DNA of 64,000 nucleotides, taken from the NCBI GenBank assembly GCA_016699425.1, contig CP064975.1, positions 789,698-853,697 of the forward strand, in the 5' to 3' direction. This DNA is from Candidatus Moraniibacteriota bacterium (GTDB taxonomy: Bacteria > Patescibacteriota > Minisyncoccia > Moranbacterales > UBA1568). The notes beneath the pieces were generated by a model, which was not told where the DNA came from, ran no database searches, and saw only the letters and a program-made list of their open reading frames with translations. This document shows, piece by piece, positions 3,988 through 54,818 of this stretch; within the stretch, counting starts at the first letter, position 1; each line of letters starts with the position of its first letter. The position numbers and the translations under genes are program-made.

Positions 3988-4536
3988 ATGGATGAATCCA
4001 AAGATCCACTATTAAGTGAGCAAGAGGGTGTCTCAACAGGAGGATATGAATACTCCTTTGTTGCTATTCCCAAGCGCCACATAGTGATCGTCGCTGCCTA
4101 TATCCAACTGATATGGAAAGTGAAGAATTTTGAGAAAACAGTTTCCCCTGAGCAGGTGCTCGAAAATACAAAATCCCTTTTCCGGGAGAACCAAGATAGG
4201 ATTTCCGATAGTCTGTGGAAGGAACACTGCGCCGGATCTTTGAGAGAACTATTAGATTGCCACATGTCAGATCTGCCCTATGCACTTGCATCTCTACCTC
4301 CTCAAACGAACAGTACCGGGCAGCGCGAGCAGATATATGCGGACCTACAGTTATATAAGGAGTTTCTCAATGACCTCGCTCATTTGCAGGGAAACTCTGC
4401 TCTCAAGAATGCACGGTTGATACTGGGAGATACTACCCTGGCAGACATCGACGACAGAGTATTTGATAAAATATGCACACAGTTCATCGACCTGCTCTAT
4501 AGTCTCTTCAGACAACATTGTATGAAAGGCGACTAA
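3988..4536 (+). CDS. hypothetical protein (first gene of AT-rich island operon)
   Basis: 182-aa ORF, 4-nt gap to next ORF, visibly lower G+C than flanks. Confidence 0.5.
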   Translation: MDESKDPLLSEQEGVSTGGYEYSFVAIPKRHIVIVAAYIQLIWKVKNFEKTVSPEQVLENTKSLFRENQDRISDSLWKEHCAGSLRELLDCHMSDLPYALASLPPQTNSTGQREQIYADLQLYKEFLNDLAHLQGNSALKNARLILGDTTLADIDDRVFDKICTQFIDLLYSLFRQHCMKGD

Positions 4537-4540
4537 TACT

Positions 4541-7500
4541 ATGAACCAAATCGATTTACATAAAAAAATTGACGAATTAGTAAAAAAATCACCCCTTCTG
4601 GAAATGAAGGAGGAAGTTTCTGTATTCATGGAAAATGAGGATGCGAAAAGCTATTTTTATTCTACTGCAGATGAAAAATGGCTTCCTTGGCTTTGGAAAA
4701 ATTCATTTTTGGAATCAATAAAGGAAAAAGCTCAAGACTTAGATCGCTACAGTTACCGTACCCCAGAGCTGAACTACTTGGCCCGTATGGCTGAAAAGGA
4801 TCCAAAAACGGTAACTGATATTTTATTGGATACCCCGATTTCTTCTAGTAATTTCAATCCGGAAGTAGTTGATAGATTCTTTTGGATAGCTAGTGAGTTA
4901 CCAGCGGAAGAGCTGACAAGAGTAATTCCAAAAATGCGCGATGAGAAATGGATCTTCCTCATGAACAATTTTAATAGTCACGTTGGCTTCAAATTTGAAA
5001 GCATGTTTAAGACACTAAGCAAGGCAGGCGACGATAAGCATGCCCTTATTCTTAGTGATATACTCTTTGAAGTTCGGAAAAAAGATGCCCCAGAAGAAGA
5101 CAAGGACTTGTGGACCGAGAACCCATTTTACTTTAAAGACCTGGAATATTCTGGGGTATTCGATTTCCTTGAAGAAGTAAATGAAAAATATCTTAGTGAG
5201 TCGCTATCCTTAGTATCGAGTACGATGGGAAAGGTGATTCTGTTTAATGCAGATAAGCGTGAGCCTCGAAGCGCATTTTCTGTTGGTGATGGCCTGGCTT
5301 TTTACGAAATAGACTTTTTCTCGCTGGAAACAGGTCAGAAAAAACATACATCTTATCGTGATGATGTACGAGACCTCGTAGCGACCATGAAAACATTGGC
5401 AATACGCGCCTTTAAAGAGAGCTGTCCTGATAAGGAAAAAACGCAAGCTATTTTTGATGCTTACATAGCTACACTACCAGATAGTCAGGCTATGTGGCGC
5501 TTTCGCCTATTCGTTTATAGCCTCTGTCCAGATATTTTTAGTAAAGATATCAAGAAGGCCCTACTCCGTCTTTCAGAGGTCGAAAATCCGCACGATATTA
5601 CTATGGGAGCAGAATATCAACAACTCCTAAGACGGAGTTTAGATTTGTTTTCTGATCCAGAAAAGCAGAAGTTTAAAGAGGTTATTCTAGGAACTTTTTC
5701 AGACTTAGGTAATGAAAAACTTTCCAAGGGGGATGTATTTGGTATATTTTCTATCATTCAAAATTGGCTGACTGAAGAGGAGAAGGAGAAGGCTGAAAAA
5801 TATATTGGCCAAACACTGAAATCAGATTTCCAGCCAGAGCCCATGATTGGAAAAATGCGAGGTGGTTACGTTCAAGAGAAATCAGTGGTGTCTTCTGAAG
5901 AGTTGGCAGCTATGAGTGTGGTTGATATTTCTAAGAAACTGCAGAAAGATTGGATACCAAAAAATTTAACACGCGAAGAATATACTGAGAGCTCTATTAT
6001 TGAATATAGTGCAGAAGGCTTAGGAAAGGCGATCCAGGATGACATGACTAAGAGATTCCAAGATTACATCCAGAACGCCCCTCTGTTCTTTGAACGGGAA
6101 TTATTGGATGCGCACTATACTTACATCTTTGTACGAGGTGTCTATGAGGTTATTAAAAATACGAAAGGAAGTTTGGATATTGAGTGGGAAGGGCTATTCG
6201 GTCTAATTTCGTCAGTCATTACTTCATTTGAAAAGATTCCTGTAGAAGATGGAAAGAGAAAAAGAGATGGGGGGCACGTTTGGCTGGCTGGCTGGGATGC
6301 GGTGCATAACGCCATGGCAGAGGTAATGGAAGTGCTCCTTAAACAACGTGAGGATAAGACGGATGTAATCGAATTCAAAAAGTACAGAGATAAAATCCTA
6401 GTAATAATTAGATACCTTTTGGCGCATCCAAATCCTGATTTGGAAAGCGAGGTGTGCACGCCTCGATCAAATCAATCTTCAACTGGGAAGGGCCAATACG
6501 ATTGTTCCGATCCTTTCACTCACGCAATTAACTCTGTTCGTGGAAAAGCTTTTGAAGCATTAATAAGCTTTGTCTATAAGGACGGAGAACAATTTCCGAA
6601 AGAAGCTCCTGTAAAAGTTTCTTCTGATGTCGTAGCTATATACGAAGAACTTCTTGGTCGGGAAAATACCCGGGCAATTATGTTTTTGTTTGGGCATTAC
6701 TTGCCCTCTATCTACTTCCGTGACAAAAAATGGACTAGGACTTTATTCGATAAGTTATTCGGATTCGATACGCCTAAGCGAGACCTTGCTCTTGCGGCAT
6801 GGGAAGGCTACTTAACGAATAATCTTTACAACGAGATCTTCCAAGAATTGGAACCTTATTACTCTCGTGCTATTGAATTAAAACGAGAAGATTATACTCC
6901 ACGAGAGTATTTCAAGGATCTTGATGAAGTATTAGCAACGCATGTCGCGCTAGCTTTTATGCATTTTCCCCAGTTCACTTATGAATCAGCGCTTTTTAAA
7001 AAGTTCTGGCAAGAAAAGAATCTTAAAAGACAGACTGAATTTATCTCATTTATCGGTCGTTATTCTATATCTCGAGACCAGGCTAAGGAATGGTTAAAGA
7101 AAAGTAAAATAGATTCTAAGAAGTTGGAAAGTTTTTGGGATTGGATTTTAGAGGCACCAGTAGATCCAAAGGTGTTTGAATCATTTGGATTTTGGATGGA
7201 TGCCGAATGGAATGTTTTTGATCCTGCTTGGCAAGCTGAGCGCACACGAAAGACGCTAGAAAAAACAGGTGGTGCAATAGAGTGGAATCATAATCTTCAA
7301 GAATCGCTCCCTATCTTCGCAAAGGTATCCCCTCAAGACACTCTAACAATACTGAAATTGCATCTAGAATATGTTGCTAAGAAAGCTCCGCAACAGGGTT
7401 GGTTTCATCTTGATGACAAAGTTCAAGAAGTATTTCAGTTCCTCTACGAAAATCCTGAGACTAAAAAAGGAACTTACAACCTCATAGATATTTTATTGCC

Positions 7501-7549
7501 GCTTAGTAATGGAATGTTCTGGAAACTTAAAGATATCGTGAAGGAGTAA
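4541..7549 (+). CDS. large hypothetical protein (1002 aa), no recognisable catalytic motifs
   Basis: 3-kb uninterrupted ORF, AT-rich codon usage, followed by strong intrinsic terminator; no Walker/nuclease motifs found by eye. Confidence 0.7.
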   Translation: MNQIDLHKKIDELVKKSPLLEMKEEVSVFMENEDAKSYFYSTADEKWLPWLWKNSFLESIKEKAQDLDRYSYRTPELNYLARMAEKDPKTVTDILLDTPISSSNFNPEVVDRFFWIASELPAEELTRVIPKMRDEKWIFLMNNFNSHVGFKFESMFKTLSKAGDDKHALILSDILFEVRKKDAPEEDKDLWTENPFYFKDLEYSGVFDFLEEVNEKYLSESLSLVSSTMGKVILFNADKREPRSAFSVGDGLAFYEIDFFSLETGQKKHTSYRDDVRDLVATMKTLAIRAFKESCPDKEKTQAIFDAYIATLPDSQAMWRFRLFVYSLCPDIFSKDIKKALLRLSEVENPHDITMGAEYQQLLRRSLDLFSDPEKQKFKEVILGTFSDLGNEKLSKGDVFGIFSIIQNWLTEEEKEKAEKYIGQTLKSDFQPEPMIGKMRGGYVQEKSVVSSEELAAMSVVDISKKLQKDWIPKNLTREEYTESSIIEYSAEGLGKAIQDDMTKRFQDYIQNAPLFFERELLDAHYTYIFVRGVYEVIKNTKGSLDIEWEGLFGLISSVITSFEKIPVEDGKRKRDGGHVWLAGWDAVHNAMAEVMEVLLKQREDKTDVIEFKKYRDKILVIIRYLLAHPNPDLESEVCTPRSNQSSTGKGQYDCSDPFTHAINSVRGKAFEALISFVYKDGEQFPKEAPVKVSSDVVAIYEELLGRENTRAIMFLFGHYLPSIYFRDKKWTRTLFDKLFGFDTPKRDLALAAWEGYLTNNLYNEIFQELEPYYSRAIELKREDYTPREYFKDLDEVLATHVALAFMHFPQFTYESALFKKFWQEKNLKRQTEFISFIGRYSISRDQAKEWLKKSKIDSKKLESFWDWILEAPVDPKVFESFGFWMDAEWNVFDPAWQAERTRKTLEKTGGAIEWNHNLQESLPIFAKVSPQDTLTILKLHLEYVAKKAPQQGWFHLDDKVQEVFQFLYENPETKKGTYNLIDILLPLSNGMFWKLKDIVKE

Positions 7550-7561
7550 TTTTGGAATAGT

Positions 7562-7587
7562 AAAAACCGCCTGTGAGGGCGGTTTTT
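7562..7587. terminator. bidirectional rho-independent terminator
   Basis: AAAAACCGCC-TGTGAG-GGCGGTTTTT hairpin between convergent ORFs. Confidence 0.6.
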
Positions 7588-7597
7588 ACTAAGTTAC

Positions 7598-7933
7598 TTA
7601 TTGGATATTCACGAGTGTCTTACAGCCCGTATCCATAGTGCCCGTTACTTTCGCTTCTTGTTCTAGGAACTCACAGGAAGCTTTCTTGTCGAAGTTCTGC
7701 CAGTTAATCTTTCCATGGGTTGGCTTATCGATGAAGTAGGTAAGCACAACATCGTTTTTCTTGTTTCCATAACGATCAGTTGTTTCGGCATAGTACCAGA
7801 CAATGACATCGTAGGCCTGGATACTCGGAACATCGTACACCGTTTGGAAGATGGAGGTGGAAAGTTCTCCTGTATCCCTGAGAAGCGAGTTTTTACTGTA
7901 GAAGCTTTTGAGGTCAACTTTAACCGTCACCAT
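7598..7933 (-). CDS. hypothetical protein (111 aa)
   Basis: ORF convergent with 1002-aa gene, shares terminator. Confidence 0.4.
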   Translation of the reverse strand: MVTVKVDLKSFYSKNSLLRDTGELSTSIFQTVYDVPSIQAYDVIVWYYAETTDRYGNKKNDVVLTYFIDKPTHGKINWQNFDKKASCEFLEQEAKVTGTMDTGCKTLVNIQ

Positions 7934-8247
7934 TTTGGTATCTTTGGGACGAGAAAGCCAGCTATACCAAGCTTGGGTTTGAGAAGCCGGTTCTAGAGAA
8001 GGATGTTATCCTCGGATTCGGCCTCCAAGATGCCAAATCAGGCCGAGGAGAGTATGAGAGCCATCATGAACTCCAGAAACTTCTCAAAGATGCTCTAAGC
8101 CCTACAAATTGGCGTCTCATGAGCGATGGAGTCACTTATCGCCTTGGATTCCTCCAAGGGCGCTTAAGGGGCGTAGAAGGTGAGGAAAAGCTCAAAGACC
8201 TCCTAGAATCCGAGCAAAAGAAAAGAGACAAGAAAGTAATTAAATAG
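7924..8247 (+). pseudogene. start-less ORF remnant (about 107 codons, no in-frame ATG/GTG/TTG before codon 66)
   Basis: open frame from stop at 7921 to TAG 8245-8247 translating ...VILGFGLQDAKSGRGEYESHHELQKLLKDALSPTNWRL...; only in-frame start gives 42 aa. Confidence 0.3.
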
Positions 8248-16232: not shown

Positions 16233-16757
16233 CTATTTTCCCTTCTCATCCGGAATAAAGCGGAGTGCCGCACCATTCATACAATAGCGCCGTCCTGTCG
16301 GAGGCGGGCCGTCTTTGAAGACATGCCCGAGGTGACCACCAGCGGTCGACAAAACTTCCGTCCGCTCTATGAAAAAGCTGTCGTCGACACGCTCGATGAC
16401 CGCTTCGGGACGGATCGGACGAGTGAAGCTGGGCCAACCCGTACCCGAATCAAATTTGTCTTCCGAACGAAAAACTGGCTCGCCCGTATCAGCCGCGACA
16501 TACGTCCCGGATCGTTTCTCGGTATTCAGTGGGCTTGAAAACGGTGCTTCTGTCGCTCCCTCGCGCAGGATAGTGTACGCTTCCGGAGACAGTTTCCTGC
16601 GCCACTCATCTTCGGTCTGCCGTGGCTGATGTGAGAGCTCCTGCCGCACTTCCTGCGCCACCCGTCTAGTGTTCTGCCAATACCAGAACACTCCTCCCGC
16701 ACCGAGGCTGAGCAAAACCAATCCGACAATACAATATCTCATATATTTCAAAGACAC
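16233..16757 (-). CDS. msrB: peptide-methionine (R)-S-oxide reductase MsrB, membrane-anchored
   Basis: GWPSF...HLGHVFKDGPPPTGRRYCMN SelR motif incl. catalytic Cys. Confidence 0.9.
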   Translation of the reverse strand: MSLKYMRYCIVGLVLLSLGAGGVFWYWQNTRRVAQEVRQELSHQPRQTEDEWRRKLSPEAYTILREGATEAPFSSPLNTEKRSGTYVAADTGEPVFRSEDKFDSGTGWPSFTRPIRPEAVIERVDDSFFIERTEVLSTAGGHLGHVFKDGPPPTGRRYCMNGAALRFIPDEKGK

Positions 16758-19058: not shown

Positions 19059-19823
19059 TCAAAGGATTTCGTAGGTCAGTGTCACATTGACCGTCGTTTC
19101 GTTTGACCCTGGCTCGATCGATGGGGCCGGCACATTGGCAACCGCCGATTTCGCACTAAGCATATCCCCCTCTCCGCCAAAACCAAAGACATTCGGTGTT
19201 TCATAGATTGAAACAAGTTGTCCCATCTCAAACCCGGCGTCCGACGCGATCCGAATGGCTTTTGCCTTCGCTTTCTCTATGGCTTCCTTCCGTGCATCAG
19301 CCTTGGCTGCGTCTTCATCCTCAACCGTGAACGTGACTTGCGAAACACTGTTGGCACCCTTGGTCACCACGCCCGAGAGTAGGTCTCCGATCTTCTCGGT
19401 ATCGCGAACTGTGACACGAAGCGTCTGCGTCAACGAATAGCCACTGATACTCGGCTGCGGACAAGTTGAGAGCCCAGTGCAATTCGGATAGTCGTAACGT
19501 GGTGAGAGAGTGTATTCATCCGTTTTCAGATCTTTCTCCGCGACAGCTGACTCCTTGAGAAAGGCCGTAACAGCATTCATCTTTTCTGTATTCTTCGCCT
19601 GGACATCGACAACATCTTTCCCATCATCCGTCACGACCGAGACAGAGAACTTGGCGACATCCGGAGAAACCTCGATCCGACCCTCACCATCTGCTGAAAA
19701 AGTCCGAGTGGGATAGGTCTTGTCGACTGAGCGCGCGTATTCCACCGCAGCGAGGAGGGCAGCGATAGCGATCAGCAGCCAAGCAAGGGATTTGACTGAG
19801 TGGCGCGTGGATTCTTCGAACAT
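19059..19823 (-). CDS. SIMPL (DUF541) domain exported protein
   Basis: N-terminal TM, SIMPL-like core; last gene of efflux operon. Confidence 0.65.
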   Translation of the reverse strand: MFEESTRHSVKSLAWLLIAIAALLAAVEYARSVDKTYPTRTFSADGEGRIEVSPDVAKFSVSVVTDDGKDVVDVQAKNTEKMNAVTAFLKESAVAEKDLKTDEYTLSPRYDYPNCTGLSTCPQPSISGYSLTQTLRVTVRDTEKIGDLLSGVVTKGANSVSQVTFTVEDEDAAKADARKEAIEKAKAKAIRIASDAGFEMGQLVSIYETPNVFGFGGEGDMLSAKSAVANVPAPSIEPGSNETTVNVTLTYEIL

Positions 19824-19896
19824 AGGCAGGGAAAAAGGTTATTTAATGTACCCACAGTATATCACCCACGCCGGTACCCGCCTGAACGAGCCACCT

Positions 19897-20394
19897 CTAC
19901 ATCTGCGACTTCAATTGATCAATTGAGTCATTGAACGCTTTGGTCGTGAGGGAGGATCCGCCGACTCTATCGATGGCCGTGAGCTCAGTCAGTTTCTTCC
20001 CCTTCACCGCCGCCGACAACCCCTCAGCGAAGGCCAACTGTCGTTTCTTGGAAATATCGTTCGTGGCGAGCACTTCGGCCTTGGCATCGACAATCACCCC
20101 CGCTGCATCTACCGACAAGGTAAAGCCCACCTGATCCTCGCCCGATGGATTCTTATAACTCGCTTTTACCGAAACGTCCTTAGCTTTCACCGCGTCAGTC
20201 GCCAGTCCAGTGGAAGACTGCACGGATCCCTCCGGTGCTTTCGACGTTACAGTTTTAGTTGTATCACCTGACGTCGTGGTTATCGGTTTGGTAGCCTCAT
20301 TCCCCTTGGAGGGCATGAGGAACTTCACGGCTGCGACGAGCAGGGCAAGCGCCGCGACACCGAAAAAGAGCGTGCTTCTCTTTATTTGTGCCAT
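19897..20394 (-). CDS. membrane-anchored FMN-binding-domain-like protein (putative flavinylation substrate)
   Basis: C-terminus AIDRVGGSSLTTKAFNDSIDQL aligns to FMN_bind consensus VDAVSGATVTSKAV..A; paralog of 54384..54818. Confidence 0.5.
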   Translation of the reverse strand: MAQIKRSTLFFGVAALALLVAAVKFLMPSKGNEATKPITTTSGDTTKTVTSKAPEGSVQSSTGLATDAVKAKDVSVKASYKNPSGEDQVGFTLSVDAAGVIVDAKAEVLATNDISKKRQLAFAEGLSAAVKGKKLTELTAIDRVGGSSLTTKAFNDSIDQLKSQM

Positions 20395-20456
20395 ACTATA
20401 GAAAGTAAAGTGTTAAGTTCCTCCATTGTACTGATTTCACCGGAACAATCAACCCC

Positions 20457-21713
20457 TTATTCGTATCGCAAGGCCTCGATCGGATTCAGGCGAGCGGCCC
20501 GACTGGCTGGGTAATAGCCGAAAACGATGCCGATGGCTGCGGAGACGAGGAATGCCAGGATGATGGAATTTGTCGAAATCTCTGCGGCAATCCCATATCG
20601 ATTCATGACAGAGGCAATGACAAAGCCCCAGAAAATCCCGAAAAATCCGCCGAAGAATGTCAGTACGATCGCTTCGGCCAAGAACTGCAGTCGGATCTCT
20701 CGGCCGCGTGCGCCGATCGCTTTGCGAAGACCGATTTCCCGGGTCCGTTCGGTCACTGAGGTAAGCATCATATTCATGATACCGATGCCACCCACGACCA
20801 GTGAGATCCCCGCCACCGCACCGAGGAGCGTGGTGAAGGTACTCGTCACCGATGATGCTGTCGCGACGATATCCGCCTGGTTCAAGATCGAGAAATCCGC
20901 AGTCTCATCTGGAGCGATACCATGGGCCTCGAGCAGGGCCGCTTTTACATTCTCGGCCGCAGCGGTCATATCCTCGCCTGTGCGAATCTGGACATTGATA
21001 TTGGACAAGTATTTGTTGCCGATCAGAAACTGCTGGGCCGTCGAGACCGGGATATAAATCACGTCATCCGAACTGCCAAAGCCCGTCCCTCCGCGCGCCG
21101 CCGTCACACCGATGACAGTAAAGTCAACCGAGCCGATCCGAACCTTCTTGCCAATCGAACTGACGCCGTCGAACAGTTCCGTGACCACATCCGGCCCAAG
21201 AACAGCGACTTTTGCCAGTGATCGTTCATGAGTCTCCGTCAAAAAGGACCCTTCGGCCAACTTCACATTCCGAACGGTCGGATACTCACTCGTTACCCCC
21301 GTTACGCTCGTATTGGTATTTTTCCCCGCTGCCGTCACCTGTCGACTACGAGCCTGCGCTTCGACTGCAACGGCTTCGACCGCTGGAATCTTTTTGAGAT
21401 GAGTGACATCCGCCGTTGTCAGCGACTGAGCCGATCCTTGTGCCCCCTGCACCGGAGAGCCCGGTCCTTGCTGGGAACCAGGTCGGACGATGAGCAGGTT
21501 CGATCCGATGGCCTGGATGTTCTGTTGGATGGCGGTCTGCGCTCCCTGGCCGATCGCCACCATGACGATAACCGACGCGATCCCGATCACGATACCGAGC
21601 ACCGTGAGGCTCGAGCGTGATTTATTCACGGTGACCGCGGTATAGATTTCCTGCGTGAGATCGGTAAGATACATACGCGTATTATATTTTTTTTCGATTG
21701 CCTGTCCGGACAT
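20457..21713 (-). CDS. MacB-like ABC transporter permease (FtsX family)
   Basis: N-terminal TM, large periplasmic domain, C-terminal FtsX 3-TM bundle. Confidence 0.85.
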   Translation of the reverse strand: MSGQAIEKKYNTRMYLTDLTQEIYTAVTVNKSRSSLTVLGIVIGIASVIVMVAIGQGAQTAIQQNIQAIGSNLLIVRPGSQQGPGSPVQGAQGSAQSLTTADVTHLKKIPAVEAVAVEAQARSRQVTAAGKNTNTSVTGVTSEYPTVRNVKLAEGSFLTETHERSLAKVAVLGPDVVTELFDGVSSIGKKVRIGSVDFTVIGVTAARGGTGFGSSDDVIYIPVSTAQQFLIGNKYLSNINVQIRTGEDMTAAAENVKAALLEAHGIAPDETADFSILNQADIVATASSVTSTFTTLLGAVAGISLVVGGIGIMNMMLTSVTERTREIGLRKAIGARGREIRLQFLAEAIVLTFFGGFFGIFWGFVIASVMNRYGIAAEISTNSIILAFLVSAAIGIVFGYYPASRAARLNPIEALRYE

Positions 21714-22380
21714 CGCTCACGAGTTCGCCATCCCGAATCGAGAGGATACGGTCGGCATGAGCGGCAACTTCGTCTTCGTGAGTAATGAGAATGATAGTAT
21801 GCCCATGTTCACGATTGAGTCGCTCAAATGTTTCCAATACTTTTTCACCGGTCCGCGTGTCGAGGTTACCGGTCGGTTCATCAGCCAGGATGAGCGATGG
21901 ATTGTTGACGAGAGCCCGAGCGATGGCGACTCGCTGCATTTGCCCACCCGAAAGCTGATTGGAGCGATGTTTCCATCGAGCCTCATCGAGACCGACGGCT
22001 CGCAGCGCCTGAGCAACCCGTTCTGTCCGCTCCACTTGTGGCACTTCCAGATAGATGAGCGGCAGCATGACATTGCGGATGACCGTCGTGCGGGGCAGCA
22101 GATTGAATGACTGGAACACAAATCCGATTTTCTCCCGCCGGATAAGAGAAAGTTCGTCTTCAGAGAGCTTCGAGACATCCTGACCCTCAAAAAGATACGC
22201 GCCTGTTGTTGGTGTATCAAGCGCCCCCAGTATGTGCATGAGGGTCGATTTCCCGCTGCCACTCGGTCCCATGATAGAAACGAATTCCCCTTTGGCAACC
22301 GAGAATGAGACATCCTTCAACACGGTCGTCTGTTGATCACCGTTCATGTATGTCTTGGTGATACCGCGACACTCGAGCAT
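21682..22380 (-). CDS. ABC transporter ATP-binding protein (MacB/LolD-type)
   Basis: [36 protein letters not shown]; 32-nt overlap with permease. Confidence 0.9.
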
Positions 22381-22401
22381 ACTGATCGACGTTTCGTTAA
22401 A

Positions 22402-23610
22402 TTAACGTGGGAAGCCGCCCGAGCGATTACTGCCACCACCCGAACCCCGGAACAGATTGAGGATACTCCCTTGGCCAGCAGAAGTGCTACTGACTGAGGT
22501 GCTCACGGCAGCACCAGGGAGCTCAACCACGGTTCCTTCAGAAAGGCCGCTTACTATTTCAGTGACAGTGTCATTGGACAGTCCGGTGGAGATCTCCCGT
22601 TTCTCTCCAATCGACTGAGCTGTACTACTATTGGGCGTCTTCGGATTCTGATTCGCACCTCTATTAGTCTGCGGGCGGGTCCCATCCCCCATGACGGTCA
22701 CTACTGTCTTGCCGTCTGCGTTCGTGATAGCTGCATTCGGCACCACCAAGACACCAGATTTATCCGCCACACTGATATCAGCGGTTGCGCTCATGCCTGG
22801 CCGCAGCTCTCCCGGCTGCTGGTCGAGCTCGATTTCGGCCGTATACGAGACCACGTTCTGCGTCACCGTCCCGATAGTATCCAACTTCGACACCTTCCCC
22901 GAGATGGTGACATTGGGGAGCGCGACAAACGTCAGCTCGGCTGTGTTGCCCTCTTTCACCTTGGCCGCATCGACTTCATTGAGCTCGATGGAGACATGTA
23001 GTCGCTTCGTGATGACCGAGGCAAGGATACCAGTCTGGGATATCGTATCGCCGCTATCGACCGAAAGTCCCGTCACGATCCCATCAAAGGGCGCCCTGAT
23101 CGTATAATCCTGCAACTTATCGCGCATGTTCTGCAGGGCGATCTCGCTCTGCTTGACCGAGTCTGCGGCCAGCTGACGTTGGCGAGCACCATCCCGATCC
23201 AGTTTCGGATAGAGTTTATTCGTCTGTTTCGCCTTGATTTCCGTCTGATGCAAACTGAGCTCAGCGTTCACGACACTCCGACGGGCATCAGAATTGTCCA
23301 GGATAGCGATCACCTGACCCTTCGTCACTGCTTGATCATTTTGCACTGCCACTGTGGTCACTTCGATCGCGTCTCCCGCCACTACCGGTTTCAAATCAAC
23401 CTGAGAATCAGCTTCCACCTGGCCGCTCCCAGAGACGGTCACCTTCAAATCAGATCTCTCCACCCGTGCGGTACGGGGTGCGGACACAGTCGTATCTGTG
23501 CTGTTCGAACTTGATAGAAAAAAGTATCCACCATAAGCGACTATCCCGACAACAACCAGAGTCACAAACCAATGACTCCGCACATAGGATACTGACTGAG
23601 AAAGCTTCAT
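22402..23610 (-). CDS. efflux periplasmic adaptor (MacA/HlyD-like)
   Basis: N-terminal TM, coiled-coil, beta-barrel architecture. Confidence 0.75.
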   Translation of the reverse strand: MKLSQSVSYVRSHWFVTLVVVGIVAYGGYFFLSSSNSTDTTVSAPRTARVERSDLKVTVSGSGQVEADSQVDLKPVVAGDAIEVTTVAVQNDQAVTKGQVIAILDNSDARRSVVNAELSLHQTEIKAKQTNKLYPKLDRDGARQRQLAADSVKQSEIALQNMRDKLQDYTIRAPFDGIVTGLSVDSGDTISQTGILASVITKRLHVSIELNEVDAAKVKEGNTAELTFVALPNVTISGKVSKLDTIGTVTQNVVSYTAEIELDQQPGELRPGMSATADISVADKSGVLVVPNAAITNADGKTVVTVMGDGTRPQTNRGANQNPKTPNSSTAQSIGEKREISTGLSNDTVTEIVSGLSEGTVVELPGAAVSTSVSSTSAGQGSILNLFRGSGGGSNRSGGFPR

Positions 23611-23627
23611 AGCGTCTGGGTCAAAGA

Positions 23628-24212
23628 TTAACGAGTGCCTTTCGGAAACGGAACACCTGGTCGGCCCGCCTCTCCTTGCGGATCGAAGACCCGGATGAGC
23701 GCAGCGACGACCGTACCATCATCGCTCGGCTTGCCCAGGGCTACGACCATATCACCCACAGACAAGTCCTCGAAATTCACTCGATCACTTCCTTTGTTGT
23801 AGATGGTCGCATCGGTAACAGCGACGCTGCTCTCTTGGCCGGCCGGATTCCGGAGCGTCATCGTCCGATCAGCCAGTGAAAGAATCACCCCCGTCACCCC
23901 GTGACCACTCCGAAAGAGATCGCCATCCATCCGACGGAGCATTCCCTGATCCATCATAGGCATATCGCCCGGTCTGCCTTTCACAAAATTACGCTCATAA
24001 TTCTCGCCGAAACGATATGAAAAACGAGCCTTGTGCAGACCGGCCGAGAAACCGACTGCGAAACTCGCGACAGCTACGAGCACAACACCAATCACGACCG
24101 CAGCCAAGACAAATATCCGCTCCCGAGTCAGGCGACGCGAGACTGATGTGACTGGGCTGCCCATCGACTTTTCTGGGGACGAAATAGGCTTCGGTGTTGG
24201 TTCAGATTCCAT
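23628..24212 (-). CDS. hypothetical membrane-anchored protein
   Basis: first ORF of efflux operon, single TM. Confidence 0.45.
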   Translation of the reverse strand: MESEPTPKPISSPEKSMGSPVTSVSRRLTRERIFVLAAVVIGVVLVAVASFAVGFSAGLHKARFSYRFGENYERNFVKGRPGDMPMMDQGMLRRMDGDLFRSGHGVTGVILSLADRTMTLRNPAGQESSVAVTDATIYNKGSDRVNFEDLSVGDMVVALGKPSDDGTVVAALIRVFDPQGEAGRPGVPFPKGTR

Positions 24213-24230: not shown

Positions 24231-24653
24231 TTAGTGGACGACGTGCAATTGGAACTGTTCCTGCCGTGTTGCGAGACTGAGATACTTTGAGCGGAATGCG
24301 AGCGAGACGACCCCAAGGAAGAGCGGTGTGAGCAGAAGTGAGGCAGAGGCAGCGGGAAATGTCTCGGCGAGAGATGCAAGAAAATCCTCAGAATATGAAA
24401 GCGCCAACCCAAAATCAGTAAAGAGGAGTGAGATAATCCGCCAGAAGTCAGAGGAGAAAAAACTCTCACCAGCAACAGCAAAACTGACGAGCAAGAACAC
24501 TAACGAAACGGAAGCACACCCCGAGGCAACACGGGATCGGAACAAGATCTGTCGAGCAGCTTCGAGCTCGATAGCCGTCAGTATCCGACCAGAAAGCCCA
24601 GCGGGAACCTCTGGTCTTGCAGTCTCGAAAATTTCCTGTGTGGTTTGTGACAT
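24231..24653 (-). CDS. putative anti-sigma factor (membrane protein)
   Basis: TM protein immediately downstream of ECF sigma. Confidence 0.4.
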   Translation of the reverse strand: MSQTTQEIFETARPEVPAGLSGRILTAIELEAARQILFRSRVASGCASVSLVFLLVSFAVAGESFFSSDFWRIISLLFTDFGLALSYSEDFLASLAETFPAASASLLLTPLFLGVVSLAFRSKYLSLATRQEQFQLHVVH

Positions 24654-24681: not shown

Positions 24682-25272
24682 TCACTCGGTTCCGGACGCA
24701 GACGACAGGCGGGCTCGAAGTTCCTGGATGGCGCGCTGATGCCGACTTTTCACCGTATTATACGGCTCACCCAAGATATCCGCCGCTTCATGAAGTGAAA
24801 AACCCTCTTGGTAAACGAGTACGATCAGAGACCGAGAGTGCTCCGTGAGTCGACCGAGTGCCTGATTCACCTCAGCCGCCGCATCCTCACGCATGAGTAG
24901 CTCAATCGGAAGCGGTTCGCTGTCAGGAATATTTTCAAAGGGCGTCTCAGCGCCGTCCGTCAGGAAAGCCGAAAATGGCACGGCCCGTTTTTTCTTGAGC
25001 CAATCGTACGCCGTGTTCTTGGCGATGGCAAACAGCCATGTCCGAAACGGCTTCCTTGCATCATAGCGATCGAGATGCCGCCACACTTTCACAAATGTCT
25101 CCTGCGCCAAGTCCTCTGCGACCGCACCATCACGGACAAGCTGGAAGACGAAAGCATAAATGGAGCCAAGGTGTTTTTCGAGCAGCGTCTTGAAAGCGAG
25201 CTCATCACCCGAACGATAGGCTTCAACGAGCGCCGTGTCCTCCGCATGACTGGTGTAAGGTCGTTGTATCAT
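24682..25272 (-). CDS. RNA polymerase sigma factor, ECF subfamily
   Basis: region 2 ...LAQETFVKVWR... and region 4 HTH SLHEAADILGEPYNTVKSR. Confidence 0.85.
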   Translation of the reverse strand: MIQRPYTSHAEDTALVEAYRSGDELAFKTLLEKHLGSIYAFVFQLVRDGAVAEDLAQETFVKVWRHLDRYDARKPFRTWLFAIAKNTAYDWLKKKRAVPFSAFLTDGAETPFENIPDSEPLPIELLMREDAAAEVNQALGRLTEHSRSLIVLVYQEGFSLHEAADILGEPYNTVKSRHQRAIQELRARLSSASGTE

Positions 25273-42798: not shown

Positions 42799-43221
42799 TT
42801 AGTATTTTCCAAAGGCCTTCAGGAGCGCATCACGACATGCCTTGCCGTGTGGCGATCCAGGGAAACCAGCCATTCTCCCTTCTTTTATACTTCCATCCGG
42901 GAGAGAAATAGTCGCAATGATTGTGTACACTTCTAATTCATCGGGTGGCATATATTGAAACTGAGCAGCGGCACCGGACGCAAGCGTATTGAGTGTCTTG
43001 GCTATTGCTTTCTTATCAAATTCTGTCACAACAACTCCTCTCTCAAAGAAGAGGTCACCCCCTGTCTCTGCTTGAGATTCGGACGGGAGTGCCTCGAGTA
43101 CTGCACCCGCCGCCGCAGCACCCGCTACCTTTAGAAATGTCCGCCGACTCATAACCGCTTTATCTTCCGGGGAAAGTTCCTTTTCTGTTGGAGCCGAGGA
43201 CACGCTCTCAAAACCTAGCAT
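42799..43221 (-). CDS. Tat-signal exported hypothetical protein
   Basis: SRRTFLKVAGAAAAGA twin-arginine motif. Confidence 0.55.
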   Translation of the reverse strand: MLGFESVSSAPTEKELSPEDKAVMSRRTFLKVAGAAAAGAVLEALPSESQAETGGDLFFERGVVVTEFDKKAIAKTLNTLASGAAAQFQYMPPDELEVYTIIATISLPDGSIKEGRMAGFPGSPHGKACRDALLKAFGKY

Positions 43222-43749: not shown

Positions 43750-44954
43750 GTTACCGTTACCTTTTCAGTTGATAGTAGGACGCTTTTTTTCAAAAAGTTT
43801 TACTGCTTCTACGCCTAGTTTTACTAATGTCTCAGGCCAGCGAGCCTGTTTTTTGATACTCAAAGAGAGTGAAGGGTAACCGTTCAAATATTTAAATTTA
43901 GCTTCACAATCTGTAAAAGGCTTGGTTCTCCTCCGTATCATCCACGCATTCAACCAACACTGAGCCGAAGCAAAACTCTGAAAACCCTTGATCGTCTTCA
44001 GCCTCCCATTGAGATGGGAATTGTAGAGTTCAATGAGATTGGTGTTGTTGGGACAGCCTGGCAGCAGCAAGTAATTGAAGAGTTCCTCCTGCCGGTACGC
44101 TATCTCACTTACGATGTTTTTGAGCAGACGTTTCTCTCTCTTGATGCTCGCGGCAAAAGATCGAATGGCGTTCGTCACATCCTCTCGTTCTCCAAACACG
44201 CTCTCCTTGAGAGCGTAAAAGAAGGGCCGGTATCGCTCTTCACTCCGCACCCGTAAAGCCACCCGGATATTCTCCAGGTAGTGGTTGTGGCAGAGCTGCA
44301 GCCGAGCCGACGGAAAAACCTTCAGGAGAGCCTTTTTCAGGCCAGAGCGGTCATCGGCGACCACGATCTGAAGATCATAGCCAAGTTGCTTCACTTGATG
44401 GAAGAAACGTGAGAAGGACACCTCATCTTCCGCTGTATACAAAGCCCCGAAGGGAATATCGTGGGTCAAGTAATCAATGCCGTAGAGAAAAGGAATCTTT
44501 CTCGCAAAGCCTTTGACCGCCACATACTTCCCATCCATGACAAGGATGCCCGAGAAGCGTCTCGGGTCACAGAGGGTTTGCGTCAGAGCGTCATTGGAAG
44601 GAAGTTGTGCTAATTCTCTTGTAACTCTCACGAAGGCTTGTTTTCCCGAGAGACCATATTCATCTCCTAATTTACGAAACGGTACCCCATCAATATGCTC
44701 GATCCACAGCAGTCTCGGATCATGCCCGAAGTAACGAGAAAAAGAATGTTCACAAGCACGACACAGGTAGTGATGGCTGTAGCCTTGGGAGCCATTCTTC
44801 ACCGTCTCACGACTGCTGCAGCGGGGACAGTGACGTGACCATTTTTTTTGACATGCTGAATGAAATTTAAGGCTTAAAGTCAACTTTACAGCCGGTTTGA
44901 GGCTCTAGTCTAACAAGAACAACACTTTCCATCAACTGAAAAGGTAACGGTATC
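43750..44954 (-). mobile_element. IS element (IS1/IS1595-like) with 24-bp terminal inverted repeats and 9-bp target-site duplication
   Basis: IRL 43750-43773 G[T]TACCGTTACCTTTTCAGTTGAT, IRR 44931-44954 reverse complement (1 mismatch); TSD GGGACAGTA at 43741-43749 and 44955-44963. Confidence 0.8.
43765..44883 (-). CDS. DDE transposase with N-terminal zinc ribbon
   Basis: CPRCSSRETVKNGSQGYSHHYLCRACEHSFS resembles IS1 InsA / IS1595 zinc finger; fills the IS. Confidence 0.7.
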   Translation of the reverse strand: MTLSLKFHSACQKKWSRHCPRCSSRETVKNGSQGYSHHYLCRACEHSFSRYFGHDPRLLWIEHIDGVPFRKLGDEYGLSGKQAFVRVTRELAQLPSNDALTQTLCDPRRFSGILVMDGKYVAVKGFARKIPFLYGIDYLTHDIPFGALYTAEDEVSFSRFFHQVKQLGYDLQIVVADDRSGLKKALLKVFPSARLQLCHNHYLENIRVALRVRSEERYRPFFYALKESVFGEREDVTNAIRSFAASIKREKRLLKNIVSEIAYRQEELFNYLLLPGCPNNTNLIELYNSHLNGRLKTIKGFQSFASAQCWLNAWMIRRRTKPFTDCEAKFKYLNGYPSLSLSIKKQARWPETLVKLGVEAVKLFEKKRPTIN

Positions 44955-50913: not shown

Positions 50914-51468
50914 CTACACTGCTGACAGTGAGACTCCAGCTGGCGGAGTTTGAGAATCCAGAGATTTGCTTTTGAGAAAGATCCAGACACCGGCCGCCGT
51001 GAGCCCAGTGAAGGCGATGAGAGACCAGTCAGCGATCGAAAGCCCGATGAGCGTCCAATCAACCGTCGCGCAATTCCCCGTCCCACCGAGCGCAAAGACG
51101 ACATCATCGATGAATGATCCGAAAGAGACCGCGCAACCCTCAGTGGCATCGTGGGCGACCGGAAAGCGCTGTAGTATGACATTGCGAAACGCTACCAGCC
51201 AGCCGAGGAAAGCAAAGACAGCAACCACCGCGCCGGACACGCGCACACTGAAGCGTGGCCACCAGGCCATGTATCCCACGAGTGCCGAGAGGCCGACCAA
51301 AGCATAGCCGAAACGCTGGACGATGCAGAGCGGACAGGGAGTGAGTCCGATCACCCGGACGAGAATCATGGCAAAGATGAGAAGTGCTGCGCAATACAGC
51401 GCGATGAGGAGGAGGAGCGTCTTCGGGTTACGGAGCGCTTCAAGCCCCTTCGAAACAATTCGGTTCAT
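50914..51468 (-). CDS. disulfide bond formation protein B-like (DsbB family)
   Basis: 4 TM, CPLC pair in first loop and second Cys pair (GCAV...GNCAT) in second loop. Confidence 0.7.
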   Translation of the reverse strand: MNRIVSKGLEALRNPKTLLLLIALYCAALLIFAMILVRVIGLTPCPLCIVQRFGYALVGLSALVGYMAWWPRFSVRVSGAVVAVFAFLGWLVAFRNVILQRFPVAHDATEGCAVSFGSFIDDVVFALGGTGNCATVDWTLIGLSIADWSLIAFTGLTAAGVWIFLKSKSLDSQTPPAGVSLSAV

Positions 51469-52791: not shown

Positions 52792-53442
52792 CTACTTCGG
52801 CATCTTCAGGACATCGACGACGCGCCCATTGATGACGAAGTTGTCATCCGGCGTGAGAAAAATCGGCTGATGACGTTTGTCCGTCGACTCCGGCATGAGC
52901 GCGATAGTCCGACCGTCGACCGAGCGATAGGTTTTTACGGTGGCGAGCCCGTCGATCACGACCAGCACGCGGTCCCCGCTCTTGTAGTCCTTCACATCGG
53001 CGTCGACGAGGATGAAGTCACCGTTCTGAATTGTTTTCCCATTCACCTTAGCTCGATTCATGGACGTCCCCGATACCTGAACGGCAAAGACATTGTGATC
53101 CTTCACGAGTCGCTTCGAAACACGGAGATACCCCTCGACATACTGGTCCGCAAACATGGTCGCTGCACCAGCACTCGCCGCACCAAAGACCGGAATCTGG
53201 ACAAAGTTATCCGAGCTCACACCCTTCAGGAGGATACCCCGGTCCTCGCTCGTCCGCTCAATATAGCCCTTATTCTCGAGCGCATTCAGATAGAGGAAGA
53301 AACTTCTCAGACTTTTCAGATTGAGCCCGAGCTTGCCGCTCTCTTCTTTGATTTCACGCACGGTCGGCATTTCGCCGTGCTCGGTGAAGAACTGCTTGAT
53401 CGCCTGGAGCACAATCCGCTGCTTTTGGGTGAGGATTTCCAT
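52792..53442 (-). CDS. lexA: LexA repressor (wHTH + S24 peptidase)
   Basis: MEILTQKQRIVLQAIK wHTH; cleavage AG, Ser in VSGTSM, Lys in KVNGK; ATG 53442; TTGACA-N16-TATACT upstream (53471-53498, minus strand). Confidence 0.85.
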   Translation of the reverse strand: MEILTQKQRIVLQAIKQFFTEHGEMPTVREIKEESGKLGLNLKSLRSFFLYLNALENKGYIERTSEDRGILLKGVSSDNFVQIPVFGAASAGAATMFADQYVEGYLRVSKRLVKDHNVFAVQVSGTSMNRAKVNGKTIQNGDFILVDADVKDYKSGDRVLVVIDGLATVKTYRSVDGRTIALMPESTDKRHQPIFLTPDDNFVINGRVVDVLKMPK

Positions 53443-53509
53443 ATGTTTGTTTACTCTACTTACACTATAGAGTATACAACTGGTTCGGAGGGTGTCAACT
53501 GTCCAGAAT

Positions 53510-54373
53510 TTAGAACAACTCCCCCACCCAATCCGGACTAACGATCGTCTGGCCATCGGCGCGGAAGACAAGGTATGTCGCGGCCAGTGCCCTGGCAAGC
53601 GTCGGAAATTGCTCCGGCGGAGCGAAGAAGAGTCCCGAGGTCATGCAGTCGGCCGCCCATGCATCTGGTGCGACCGCCGCGCAGCCGACGACTGTCTCGA
53701 CGCTTTTCCGTGCGCCCATATCGACGAGGTGATGCCACTTCCCAAACCGCCGCCGGAAGCTGTCAGAAACAGCCAGTCCTCGGTTGCAAAGCTCGACGAT
53801 CCCTGCTGCGACATCGGGTTTCCCGGGATACTCGATCGCCACGCGCCATGGCTGGCCATCGGTCTTGGTCGTCGCAACCATATCGCCCCCTCCATCGACG
53901 ATGAAATGTCCGTACCCCGCGGTACGGATGAGATCGGCAATCCGATCGATACAGTACCCCTTGCCGATGCCACCGAGATCAAAGGCCACCGGACCATCAA
54001 GTGTGAGTACTTCACCGTCAATTGACCATATGGGCAATGCCTCGCCGTATTCGACTGGTCGCACACCTGACTGTGCACCATAGCCTGCACCCTCGAGCAC
54101 GCCACCGACAATCGGATCATAGACACCACCCGTCAGCTGGCGCAAAAGCGCGGCTCGTTCGAGGAGCCGGGCGAACTCTGATGAAACTGGGTAGCTGCCG
54201 GCGGCCACTTCACGATACGCATTCACTTCCGATCCCGGGAGAAAGCGCGAAAAGCGGGACTCGAAGTCCCGCGCATAGCCGATAATCGTTTCATCCAAAC
54301 GCTCTGGGAGAGACTCGGCATCGATCACGATCGACCAGGCCGTCCCCAGTCCCTGGAAATCGATTGTCTGCAT
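53510..54373 (-). CDS. apbE: FAD:protein FMN transferase (ApbE family), no signal peptide
   Basis: DLGGIGKGY and downstream ApbE blocks; N-terminus MQTIDFQGLGTAW lacks signal/lipobox. Confidence 0.8.
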   Translation of the reverse strand: MQTIDFQGLGTAWSIVIDAESLPERLDETIIGYARDFESRFSRFLPGSEVNAYREVAAGSYPVSSEFARLLERAALLRQLTGGVYDPIVGGVLEGAGYGAQSGVRPVEYGEALPIWSIDGEVLTLDGPVAFDLGGIGKGYCIDRIADLIRTAGYGHFIVDGGGDMVATTKTDGQPWRVAIEYPGKPDVAAGIVELCNRGLAVSDSFRRRFGKWHHLVDMGARKSVETVVGCAAVAPDAWAADCMTSGLFFAPPEQFPTLARALAATYLVFRADGQTIVSPDWVGELF

Positions 54374-54383
54374 TGCTTATCTG

Positions 54384-54818
54384 TTAGAGCTGGCTCTTCA
54401 GCTTGTCGATGACGCTATTGAACGCATCGGTTGTCATCGATGATTTGCCGATCCGGTCCACTGCTGTGAGTTCGGAAAGTTTCTTGCCCTTAATGACCGC
54501 TGCAAGTCCCTGGGCGAACTCGATCTGATGCTCATCGGCTTCATTCGTCTCGACCGCTACTTCACGGACATCGGTGATGACACCTTCTGCATCCAGGACA
54601 AGCGTAAACCGCACACTGTCATACCCGTCATTCGGCACGGGGTAGCCCACCTCGGCACTCACCTCTCGCGGCTTATCAACAGCGACCTTGGTCACCGCTA
54701 TCGGCGTTTCCTCGGTGCGCGCGGCTGGGAGAAGCTTCAACGTGTACCGACAGTACACAAACGCCGTGAGCACGAGCACGACTGCGATAGCGATGATCCC
54801 CTTGGGTATCTTTTGCAT
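54384..54818 (-). CDS. membrane-anchored FMN-binding-domain-like protein, paralog of 19897..20394
   Basis: C-terminus AVDRIGKSSMTTDAFNSVIDKLKSQL aligns to FMN_bind consensus; N-terminal TM. Confidence 0.55.
   Translation of the reverse strand: MQKIPKGIIAIAVVLVLTAFVYCRYTLKLLPAARTEETPIAVTKVAVDKPREVSAEVGYPVPNDGYDSVRFTLVLDAEGVITDVREVAVETNEADEHQIEFAQGLAAVIKGKKLSELTAVDRIGKSSMTTDAFNSVIDKLKSQL

Follow-up and report, generated by a model that had tools for sequence, protein, structure and literature searches.

The stretch of DNA considered here (the window) covers 64,000 nucleotides (nt) of contig CP064975.1 from a Candidatus Moraniibacteriota bacterium, a member of the candidate phyla radiation (CPR). 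Within positions 19059-24212, six open reading frames (ORFs) on the minus strand encode a small membrane protein, a periplasmic adaptor, an ATP-binding cassette (ABC) ATPase, a MacB-type permease, a 165-aa protein that we call FMNb1 and a protein of the SIMPL/DUF541 family. The initial annotation described these genes as one efflux operon in which a putative flavoprotein is embedded. Six co-directional genes do lie at the coordinates that it gave, and profile scans confirmed their family identities. FMNb1 and SIMPL are, however, not embedded among the pump genes but lie downstream of them, beyond spacers of 62 and 73 nt. We consider it reasonably probable that two separable units stand side by side, namely an ordinary pump and, next to it, an FMNb1-SIMPL pair that belongs with a flavinylation system of the ApbE type. 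The features that bear on the second unit are the following:

19897-20394, minus strand: FMNb1, with an N-terminal transmembrane (TM) anchor, a Ser/Thr/Pro-rich linker and a diverged FMN_bind domain (FMN, flavin mononucleotide; residues ~70-165).
19951-19971, minus strand: codons of D142-R-V-G-G-S-S148, the predicted flavinylation motif with putative acceptor Ser148, recognised by conservation.
19059-19823, minus strand: membrane-anchored SIMPL/DUF541 protein (PF04402, E 2.4e-48), with a clade-specific cysteine pair, C-x6-C-P, in YPNCTGLSTCPQP.
54384-54818, minus strand: FMNb2, a 144-aa paralog of FMNb1 with the motif VDRIGKSS (BLASTP, 50% identity over 105 residues, E 3e-32; family profile, E 1.8e-31).
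53510-54373, minus strand: flavin transferase of the ApbE family, lacking both signal peptide and TM segment (PF02424, E 7.5e-39, domain from residue 9).
52792-53598, minus strand: LexA repressor (Peptidase_S24, E 2e-21; LexA_DNA_bind, E 3e-12).

The relationship of FMNb1 to FMN_bind proteins emerges at the level of its family. Direct Pfam and NCBIfam scans of the protein returned nothing useful. A homolog search recovered 97 relatives, none of them with a precomputed Pfam domain. Individual Pfam scans of 54 homologs gave FMN_bind as the commonest assignment: 27 of the 54 match PF04205, with a best E of 8e-5, and three match NifU_N. The gathering cut-off of PF04205 (22 bits; profile length 77) is passed by P0086 (23.6 bits), P0200 (24.7) and P0227 (32.1), and the alignments of all three span the whole domain, from profile positions 3-5 to 72-74 of 77 (5-72 in P0086). 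These proteins are firmly tied to FMNb1, since P0086 matches it at E 3e-21 and the family profile finds P0200 at E 2.8e-24 and P0227 at E 1.1e-22. Searched against 1.84 billion representatives, the same profile retrieves 2,905 proteins at E<=1e-3, of which 1,923 reach E<=1e-10. The structural model of FMNb1 consists of a three-stranded antiparallel sheet, a helix, a cofactor loop and a second helix, which is the order of elements described for SaFMN3-D2. On this family-level and fold-level homology, FMNb1 is a true but highly diverged member of the FMN_bind superfamily. The FMN_bind-like assignment of the initial annotation is therefore retained by way of family members, profile and fold, and not through a PF04205 match of the protein itself, which fails at E<=1.

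An N-terminal hydrophobic segment is present in 93 of the 97 FMNb homologs and a textbook lipobox in 19, whereas a twin-arginine motif is found in none of the 97. The lipobox bearers include P0065, P0092 and P0095, each encoded beside an ApbE without a signal. From its sequence, FMNb1 is probably membrane-anchored with the domain on the extracytosolic side. Some relatives contain tandem FMN_bind-like domains: seven in P0098 (1005 aa) and three each in P0128 (554 aa) and P0166 (440 aa). The repeats carry IGGASLTT-like motifs and resemble known multi-flavinylated proteins, and Pfam at E<=1 reports no FMN_bind domain in any of the three.

The best-conserved stretch of the family is I-D-[RK]-[VI]-G-G-[SA]-S-L-T-T-x-x-F-N, in which the aspartate, the glycine pair, the serine and LTT are invariant in all 97 homologs. 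Its core, D-[RK]-[VI]-G-G-[SA]-S, likewise occurs in 97/97. The known seven-residue motif of ApbE substrates is D-x-x-[S/T]-G-A-[S/T] (PMC12052999). The aspartate, the second glycine and the acceptor agree between the two, and positions 4 and 6 differ. GGAS and the canonical SGAS occur as intermediates in Pfam-positive relatives. Mutagenesis of the known motif has shown that ApbE accepts serine and tolerates changes at the Gly/Ala positions with partial loss (PMC12052999). In the FMNb1 model, Ser148 lies at the N-terminus of helix 2, the last helix; the corresponding helix of SaFMN3-D2 comprises residues 72-87. The motif similarity noted in the initial annotation is not coincidental, even though the protein itself fails to match PF04205.

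The window also encodes a candidate enzyme. The ApbE gene was found by tblastn with ApbEs from the contexts of FMNb homologs (L004, L006 and L008; 39-43% identity, E down to 1e-75). Its ORF already begins with the earliest start codon that the preceding stop allows. FMNb2, which has no PF04205 match at E<=10, ends 10 nt before the ApbE start, and LexA comes after ApbE. This locus is ~33 kb away from FMNb1. The presence of ApbE and FMNb2 in the window means that the genome encodes the enzyme needed to flavinylate FMNb proteins. The ApbEs encoded beside members of the family (window, L004, L006, L008, L013, L016 and L086) all start at the catalytic domain and have neither a signal peptide nor a TM segment. 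The product of the gene directly upstream of FMNb2-ApbE (54931-55839, minus strand) has 302 aa and a hydrophobic segment at its N-terminus, and it matches nothing in Pfam. Pfam scans of 20 further ORFs of the window revealed no flavin-related genes. Scans of the entire window with Rfam and for tRNAs returned no match, which leaves neither locus with an FMN riboswitch or any other known RNA nearby. The initial annotation had proposed a flavinylated extracytosolic protein: an FMN_bind domain on an anchor, a flavinylation-like motif and an ApbE in the same window speak for it, with flavinylation as the predicted element. The same features make a redox-type role for FMNb1 and SIMPL reasonable.

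The SIMPL protein encoded after FMNb1 matches PF04402 over its full length (residues 45-251 on profile positions 4-205 of 205), and it also matches Brucella BP26 (4hvz, E 1e-21) and the YggE model NF008299 (E 1.7e-26). An invariant C-x4-6-C-P loop and an N-terminal anchor are common to all 18 Patescibacteria SIMPL proteins recovered, namely that of the window and 17 encoded in related loci. BP26 (4hvz) has no cysteines at the aligned positions. We infer from co-inheritance that the cysteine pair may be redox-active and that FMNb1 may be its partner. The window further encodes a DsbB-family protein with a CPLC motif (50914-51468, minus strand; PF02600, E 1e-26), which makes extracytoplasmic disulfide chemistry plausible. 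LexA is found in 12 related loci (e.g. L013 2948-3601, L016 5228-5881, L118 6920-7573), mostly directly beside SIMPL or ApbE; the LexA of the window probably has its conserved start at an internal methionine, which would give ~217 aa. A membrane-anchored MsrB (SelR) was considered as a further conserved partner and dropped, since it showed only local synteny in Moraniibacteriota and one other locus. This MsrB (16233-16757, minus strand) has an N-terminal TM helix and is apparently extracytosolic, where it would need a reductant from outside; an MsrB gene is also found near FMNb-ApbE in L006.

The first unit is a pump cassette. Its conserved block begins upstream of the interval originally delimited, with a sigma factor of the extracytoplasmic function (ECF) type and a membrane protein, and comprises the following genes:

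24682-25272, minus strand: ECF-type sigma factor, first gene of the cassette (Sigma70_r2, E 1e-21; Sigma70_r4, E 1e-10; TIGR02937 sigma70-ECF, E 1e-34).
24231-24653, minus strand: 140-aa membrane protein, putative anti-sigma factor by position only.
23628-24212, minus strand: membrane protein with one TM pass and an extracytosolic DUF5666 domain, a pump accessory (PF18914, E 2.6e-7, above cut-off).
22402-23610, minus strand: membrane-fusion (periplasmic adaptor) protein (HlyD_D23, E 4e-17; TIGR01730 (RND_mfp), E 5e-38).
21682-22380, minus strand: ABC ATPase of the MacB/LolD type (ABC_tran, E 6e-36).
20457-21713, minus strand: MacB-type (FtsX-fold) permease (MacB_PCD (PF12704), E 1e-51; FtsX (PF02687), E 5e-21).

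Membership of the MacB class follows from the permease, which carries the MacB periplasmic core domain and the four-helix FtsX module, and from the ATPase and the HlyD-family adaptor in the same cluster. The best NCBIfam models for the ATPase are the N-terminal half of MacB (E 3.5e-75) and LolD (E 2.5e-74). Solved relatives of the permease include MacB 5gko (E 5e-64) and the Streptococcus pneumoniae permease 5xu1 (E 1e-40), and the structures nearest to the adaptor are the MacA chimera/MacA entries 4dk1, 4dk0 and 5nik. The 140-aa protein has zero Pfam matches, and its anti-sigma role is suggested by gene position; this position is kept in the Moraniibacteriota loci and in 21 of 45 loci seeded with MacB (see below). 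The longest MacB ORF has 13 extra residues (21674-21713); of eight relatives, six lack them even in their longest ORF, which starts at the homolog of M14 (21674). From this comparison, M14 is the probable true start of the permease. The 32-nt overlap between the ATPase and permease genes reported in the initial annotation holds for the longest ORF; with a start at M14 the overlap is gone and a 7-nt gap takes its place. No TolC outer-membrane duct was noticed beside the cassette, and a genome-wide search for one was not made. An outer membrane is not expected in CPR cells. The unit between 24231/24682 and 20457 is a MacAB/YknXYZ-like exporter of the monoderm kind and an ordinary member of the MacB/adaptor class. 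By analogy with Bacillus subtilis YknWXYZ and S. pneumoniae Spr0693-0695, its substrates are most likely toxic peptides or other envelope-damaging compounds, with expression under envelope-stress control.

All real genes checked for strand, that is, those listed for the 16-28 kb and 50.9-55.8 kb stretches of the window, are on the minus strand; co-direction is thus poor evidence for an operon. The survey seeded with FMNb covered 28 loci from a collection with one genome per species and eight loci of exact proteins (L001-L008). In it, the order sigma-...-MacB-FMNb1-SIMPL was found in eight loci, all from Moraniibacteriota (L002, L003, L009-L012, L014, L018). In the other loci the neighbour is normally ApbE. 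A type-1 copy (GGSS) immediately precedes it in three protein-seeded contigs (L004/L005, L006, L008) and in 23 loci of the 28 in the genome-seeded set, with 8-20 nt between FMNb and ApbE in most lineages. In nine contigs a divergent gene for an RnfD-like membrane protein of ~286 aa accompanies FMNb. It stands beside FMNb-ApbE in L004, L006, L017, L020, L023, L033 and L035 and beside FMNb alone at a contig end in L024, and in L008 a homologous membrane-protein gene with no Pfam match on record takes the same place. A weak PF03116 match is recorded for the proteins of L004 and L006, and the others were recognised by tblastn similarity to these two. In L013 and L031, type-2 copies separate type 1 from ApbE, giving the order FMNb1-FMNb2-ApbE-LexA-SIMPL; in L015, L016, L019, L027, L028 and L034 they lie just upstream of SIMPL-LexA and a few kb upstream of FMNb1-ApbE. 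L029 has the order SIMPL-FMNb1-ApbE. SIMPL is directly beside FMNb or ApbE-LexA in L013, L015, L016, L029 and L031 and between a few hundred bases and 4 kb away in L017, L019, L027, L028 and L034. Among three contexts seeded with SIMPL, L118 and L119 show FMNb2-DUF378-SIMPL-LexA followed 3-4 kb on by FMNb1-ApbE, and L117 has neither arrangement.

The reciprocal survey was seeded with MacB and comprised 80 metagenome loci at 53-70% identity, 45 of them with at least 4.5 kb of upstream and 58 with at least 1.2 kb of downstream sequence. The cassette itself is well conserved, with the sigma gene upstream in 39/45 loci, the membrane-fusion protein in 44/45 and the DUF5666 gene in 34/45, the latter in some cases with a second copy after MacB. 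Downstream of MacB, an FMN_bind-like gene was found in one of 58 loci (L086) and SIMPL in none of the 58. In a neighbour-joining tree of the domains, all MacB-adjacent FMNb copies fall into one clade, so that the eight loci represent one evolutionary event, and the sister of this clade is the copy of L013, from the FMNb1-FMNb2-ApbE-LexA-SIMPL cluster. The sequences are most simply read as a recurrent association of FMNb, ApbE, SIMPL and LexA, with the MacB adjacency as one lineage-specific rearrangement.

Spacing and candidate transcription signals also separate the two units. Within the sigma-to-MacB cassette the spacers measure <=28 nt, against the 62 nt of MacB-FMNb1 and the 73 nt of FMNb1-SIMPL; in relatives, the spacers around FMNb1 are 60-121 nt. 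Three elements were recognised here:

20425-20452, minus strand: sigma-70-like promoter in the MacB-FMNb1 spacer, TTGATT-16 nt-TACAAT, from a consensus scan.
20395-20414, minus strand: 20-nt leader AACACTTTACTTTCTATAGT, directly preceding the start codon of FMNb1 and recognised by conservation.
19856-19864, minus strand: extended -10-like element TGATATACT upstream of SIMPL, resembling TGnTATA[AC]T.

TTGAT does not vary among the seven genomes compared, and each retains a -10-like nAnAnT hexamer 16-17 nt from it, against a changing spacer sequence. The leader has 16 of 20 positions invariant in seven Moraniibacteriota loci whose proteins are only ~60% identical; it is unique in the window (chance matches expected, 0) and has no Shine-Dalgarno-like sequence inside. 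An ECF-type promoter within the leader was rejected because the AAC element is too near the start codon for a -35/-10 pair. In the FMNb1-SIMPL spacer, a TGnTATA[AC]T-like element is present in five of seven genomes (window, L002, L009, L010, L012), and L011 and L014 have a looser TATACT. A GC-rich hairpin with a T-run precedes this element in L002, L010 and L011 (z -4.0, -2.4 and -3.6, respectively); the corresponding spacer of the window has no significant hairpin (z 0.24). From such consensus matches and their conservation, it can be argued that FMNb1 and SIMPL are able to be expressed on their own. Short spacers, freedom from internal signals and co-occurrence across lineages, as would mark a single six-gene operon, are not what these sequences display.

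The interpretation that we favour can be outlined as follows. The ECF sigma factor, putative anti-sigma factor, DUF5666 protein, membrane-fusion protein, ABC ATPase and MacB permease would form a stress-controlled exporter. The second unit would consist of FMNb1 (19897-20394) and SIMPL (19059-19823), both preceded by a promoter-like element of their own. ApbE (53510-54373) would attach FMN to Ser148 by a phosphoester bond, turning FMNb1 into a small flavoprotein of the cell surface that would carry electrons from a presumed donor to a presumed acceptor. The likeliest partner would be the co-inherited SIMPL protein, the cysteine pair of which could be a redox-active or redox-controlled site, and the two proteins together might constitute an envelope redox or oxidative-stress module. 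The adjacency of the units would have arisen once, in one clade of Moraniibacteriota, by rearrangement of an ancestral FMNb1-FMNb2-ApbE-LexA-SIMPL cluster.

Several observations weigh against this interpretation. FMNb1 has no PF04205 match of its own, and two of the seven motif residues deviate, with Gly in place of Ser/Thr and, in most proteins, Ser in place of Ala. Every ApbE inspected is without an export signal, yet the FMNb proteins are anchored or (19/97) lipobox-bearing. Three explanations can be considered for this mismatch of enzyme and substrate: attachment of the flavin in the cytoplasm before Sec export, an unknown export route for ApbE, or FMNb proteins not being the substrate of this ApbE. 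An RnfD-like partner was sought by tblastn of the window, which gave nothing below E 0.09, and the tblastn search for a flavodoxin was also empty. The SIMPL partnership is proposed from gene neighbourhood, and the promoter calls are consensus matches combined with conservation, not mapped transcription starts. The MacB-FMNb1 spacer of the window has no recognisable terminator, so that co-transcription by read-through is possible. Finally, the distant metagenome lineage represented by L086 (6010-9118) has the order MacB-DUF5666-FMN_bind-like-ApbE, with the motif VSGSS; here flavinylation genes have come to lie beside a MacB cassette for a second time, independently.

Some of these points would be accommodated if FMNb1 had kept the fold but were not flavinylated, being a degenerate structural or binding domain, with ApbE modifying a cytoplasmic target or the RnfD-like protein. 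The two deviating motif positions, the missing direct Pfam match and the mismatch between a signal-less ApbE and anchored or lipobox-bearing FMNb proteins all fit this explanation, and cytoplasmic ApbEs with cytoplasmic targets are known (PMC12052999). We nevertheless regard it as unlikely. The motif is the most conserved region of the family, in 97/97 proteins, as expected of a cofactor site and not of decay, and a graded series leads from it to the canonical SGAS of Pfam-positive relatives. The FMNb and ApbE genes are only 8-20 nt apart in most lineages, multi-repeat relatives resemble known multi-flavinylated proteins, and in the mutagenesis cited above ApbE takes serine as acceptor and copes, with partial loss, with changes at the Gly and Ala positions.

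A second alternative, close to the initial annotation, is that the six genes (really eight) form one system in which the MacB pump works with the flavoprotein and SIMPL, for example by exporting, inserting or servicing a redox module or its cofactor. The MacB-FMNb1-SIMPL order of eight Moraniibacteriota loci is consistent with this, as are the want of a recognisable terminator between MacB and FMNb1 in the window, the arrangement in L086 and the prediction that all products act at or beyond the membrane. Against this, 57/58 MacB-seeded loci are without FMNb and 58/58 without SIMPL, most FMNb loci are without MacB and carry ApbE, RnfD-like, SIMPL or LexA genes instead, and the MacB-adjacent copies form a single clade. 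The promoter-like element before FMNb1, the terminators after FMNb1 in three relatives, the -10-like element of SIMPL and the 62-73 nt spacers, which in relatives measure 60-121 nt, beside the short ones of the cassette point in the same direction. We therefore hold a single system to be improbable. In the survey of MacB and FMN_bind co-occurrence that the initial annotation called for, the order was kept in eight loci of one clade and FMNb was absent from 57 of 58 MacB-seeded loci; with the promoter-like elements of FMNb1 and SIMPL also considered, the proposed coupling of FMNb1 to the pump was not borne out.

An IscU/NifU-like iron-sulfur scaffold, to which IscU as the top Foldseek match in the PDB (E 3.5e-3), a weak match of the family profile to the NifU-like 1q48 (E 0.78) and two homologs named NifU-like by JGI might point, has a negligible chance of being correct, since FMNb1 contains no cysteine and no histidine and therefore cannot ligate a cluster, bears a membrane anchor and an exported-type linker, and belongs to a family with 27 FMN_bind matches versus three to NifU_N. 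When the family profile and P0086 were compared with the sequences of PDB chains, matches were at chance level only, to IscU-type (the E 0.78 match) and unrelated proteins.

Two further observations concern other parts of the window. An ORF of 1002 aa without a Pfam match (4541-7549, plus strand) lies inside a low-GC region at ~4000-8000 (GC 0.41 vs ~0.54), and this island is possibly acquired DNA. Between translation-factor genes there are a small protein with a TAT_signal (twin-arginine) match (42799-43221, minus strand) and a Mutator-family transposase (43765-44883, minus strand).

What makes this locus worth attention is a large, Pfam-invisible branch of FMN_bind tied to ApbE; the pump itself is routine. 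More broadly, and only tentatively, it is possible that Patescibacteria carry a hitherto unrecognised flavinylation system made up of an FMN_bind family missed by standard Pfam annotation (~2,900 clusters at 50% identity, some proteins having as many as seven repeats), a signal-less ApbE whose substrates would be anchored or lipidated outside the cell, and a SIMPL partner with a cysteine pair; we regard this wider claim as doubtful. In Moraniibacteriota, it would leave room for a further recruitment of the FMNb1-SIMPL pair to the locus of the envelope-stress pump. If true, it would overturn the reported scarcity of flavinylation in CPR and provide a first biochemical context for the SIMPL family. 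The signal-less ApbE raises the question of where the flavin gets attached, and under this claim either the flavin would be attached before export or the enzyme would take an unknown route. Should FMNb proteins be flavinylated, ultrasmall fermentative CPR cells would have a redox module at their surface. The recurrent link of the FMNb family to a cysteine-pair SIMPL protein and to LexA is a testable clue to the function of SIMPL/YggE/BP26 proteins. For annotation, the lesson is that co-directional adjacency to a MacB cassette does not amount to functional coupling.

The FMNb1 model shares its fold and order of elements with NqrC, RnfG, Listeria PplA and the domains of SaFMN3 (8P2A) and CbFMN4 (8P2B). 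As in known ApbE-flavinylated FMN_bind proteins, the putative acceptor is at the start of the last helix, and in both the motif begins with aspartate and ends with this residue. Other features in common are an adjacent ApbE in most lineages, a membrane or lipid anchor and the existence of multi-repeat versions (seven in P0098). FMNb proteins differ in their sequence divergence, in the D-[RK]-[VI]-G-G-[SA]-S motif and in a cognate ApbE without a signal peptide, and their flavinylation is predicted. The 2021 census of extracytosolic flavinylation (Meheust et al., PMC8238504) required a PF04205 match and a signal peptide, so that most of the FMNb family would have been missed there. It found flavinylation to be “strikingly underrepresented” in CPR and described in them only clusters with an RnfD-NqrF fusion (PMC8238504). 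If FMNb proteins are indeed flavinylated, this scarcity would partly reflect the detection criteria. By the signal peptide or lipidation used in that work to recognise extracytosolic systems, ApbE of the window shows none, FMNb1 has an N-terminal hydrophobic helix and 19/97 homologs have a lipobox. Like the NQR/RNF-like clusters of Actinobacteria and CPR (PMC8238504), the FMNb loci are from CPR and include an NqrB/RnfD-like protein (PF03116, weak) beside FMNb-ApbE; in the published clusters RnfD is fused to an NqrF-type NAD-binding domain, whereas the RnfD-like protein of the FMNb loci is stand-alone, with ~286 aa. The terms SIMPL, LexA, MacB and Patescibacteria are absent from PMC8238504 and from its 2024 follow-up. 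We found no paper linking SIMPL or MacB to ApbE/FMN_bind (for SIMPL, in titles and abstracts) and, beyond the 2021 census (PMC8238504), nothing on ApbE in Patescibacteria.

The pump has the same MacB_PCD and FtsX permease, MacB/LolD-type ATPase and HlyD-family adaptor as MacAB-TolC of Escherichia coli, Spr0693-0695 and YknWXYZ. It is closest to the monoderm systems, with which it shares separate ATPase and permease genes and an extra small membrane protein. In the present case the accessory is DUF5666 and not YknW, and a sigma/anti-sigma pair belongs to the conserved cassette. The yknWXYZ operon is under the control of sigma-W, which the ECF sigma gene upstream of the pump in the window recalls. 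The SIMPL protein of the window, in turn, has the full-length SIMPL domain of BP26 (4HVZ) and of E. coli YggE, named an ‘oxidative stress defense protein’. Unlike BP26 it has the C-x4-6-C-P loop, and it is further set apart by an N-terminal TM anchor. In Patescibacteria, SIMPL proteins of this kind are repeatedly encoded beside FMN_bind-like, ApbE and LexA genes.

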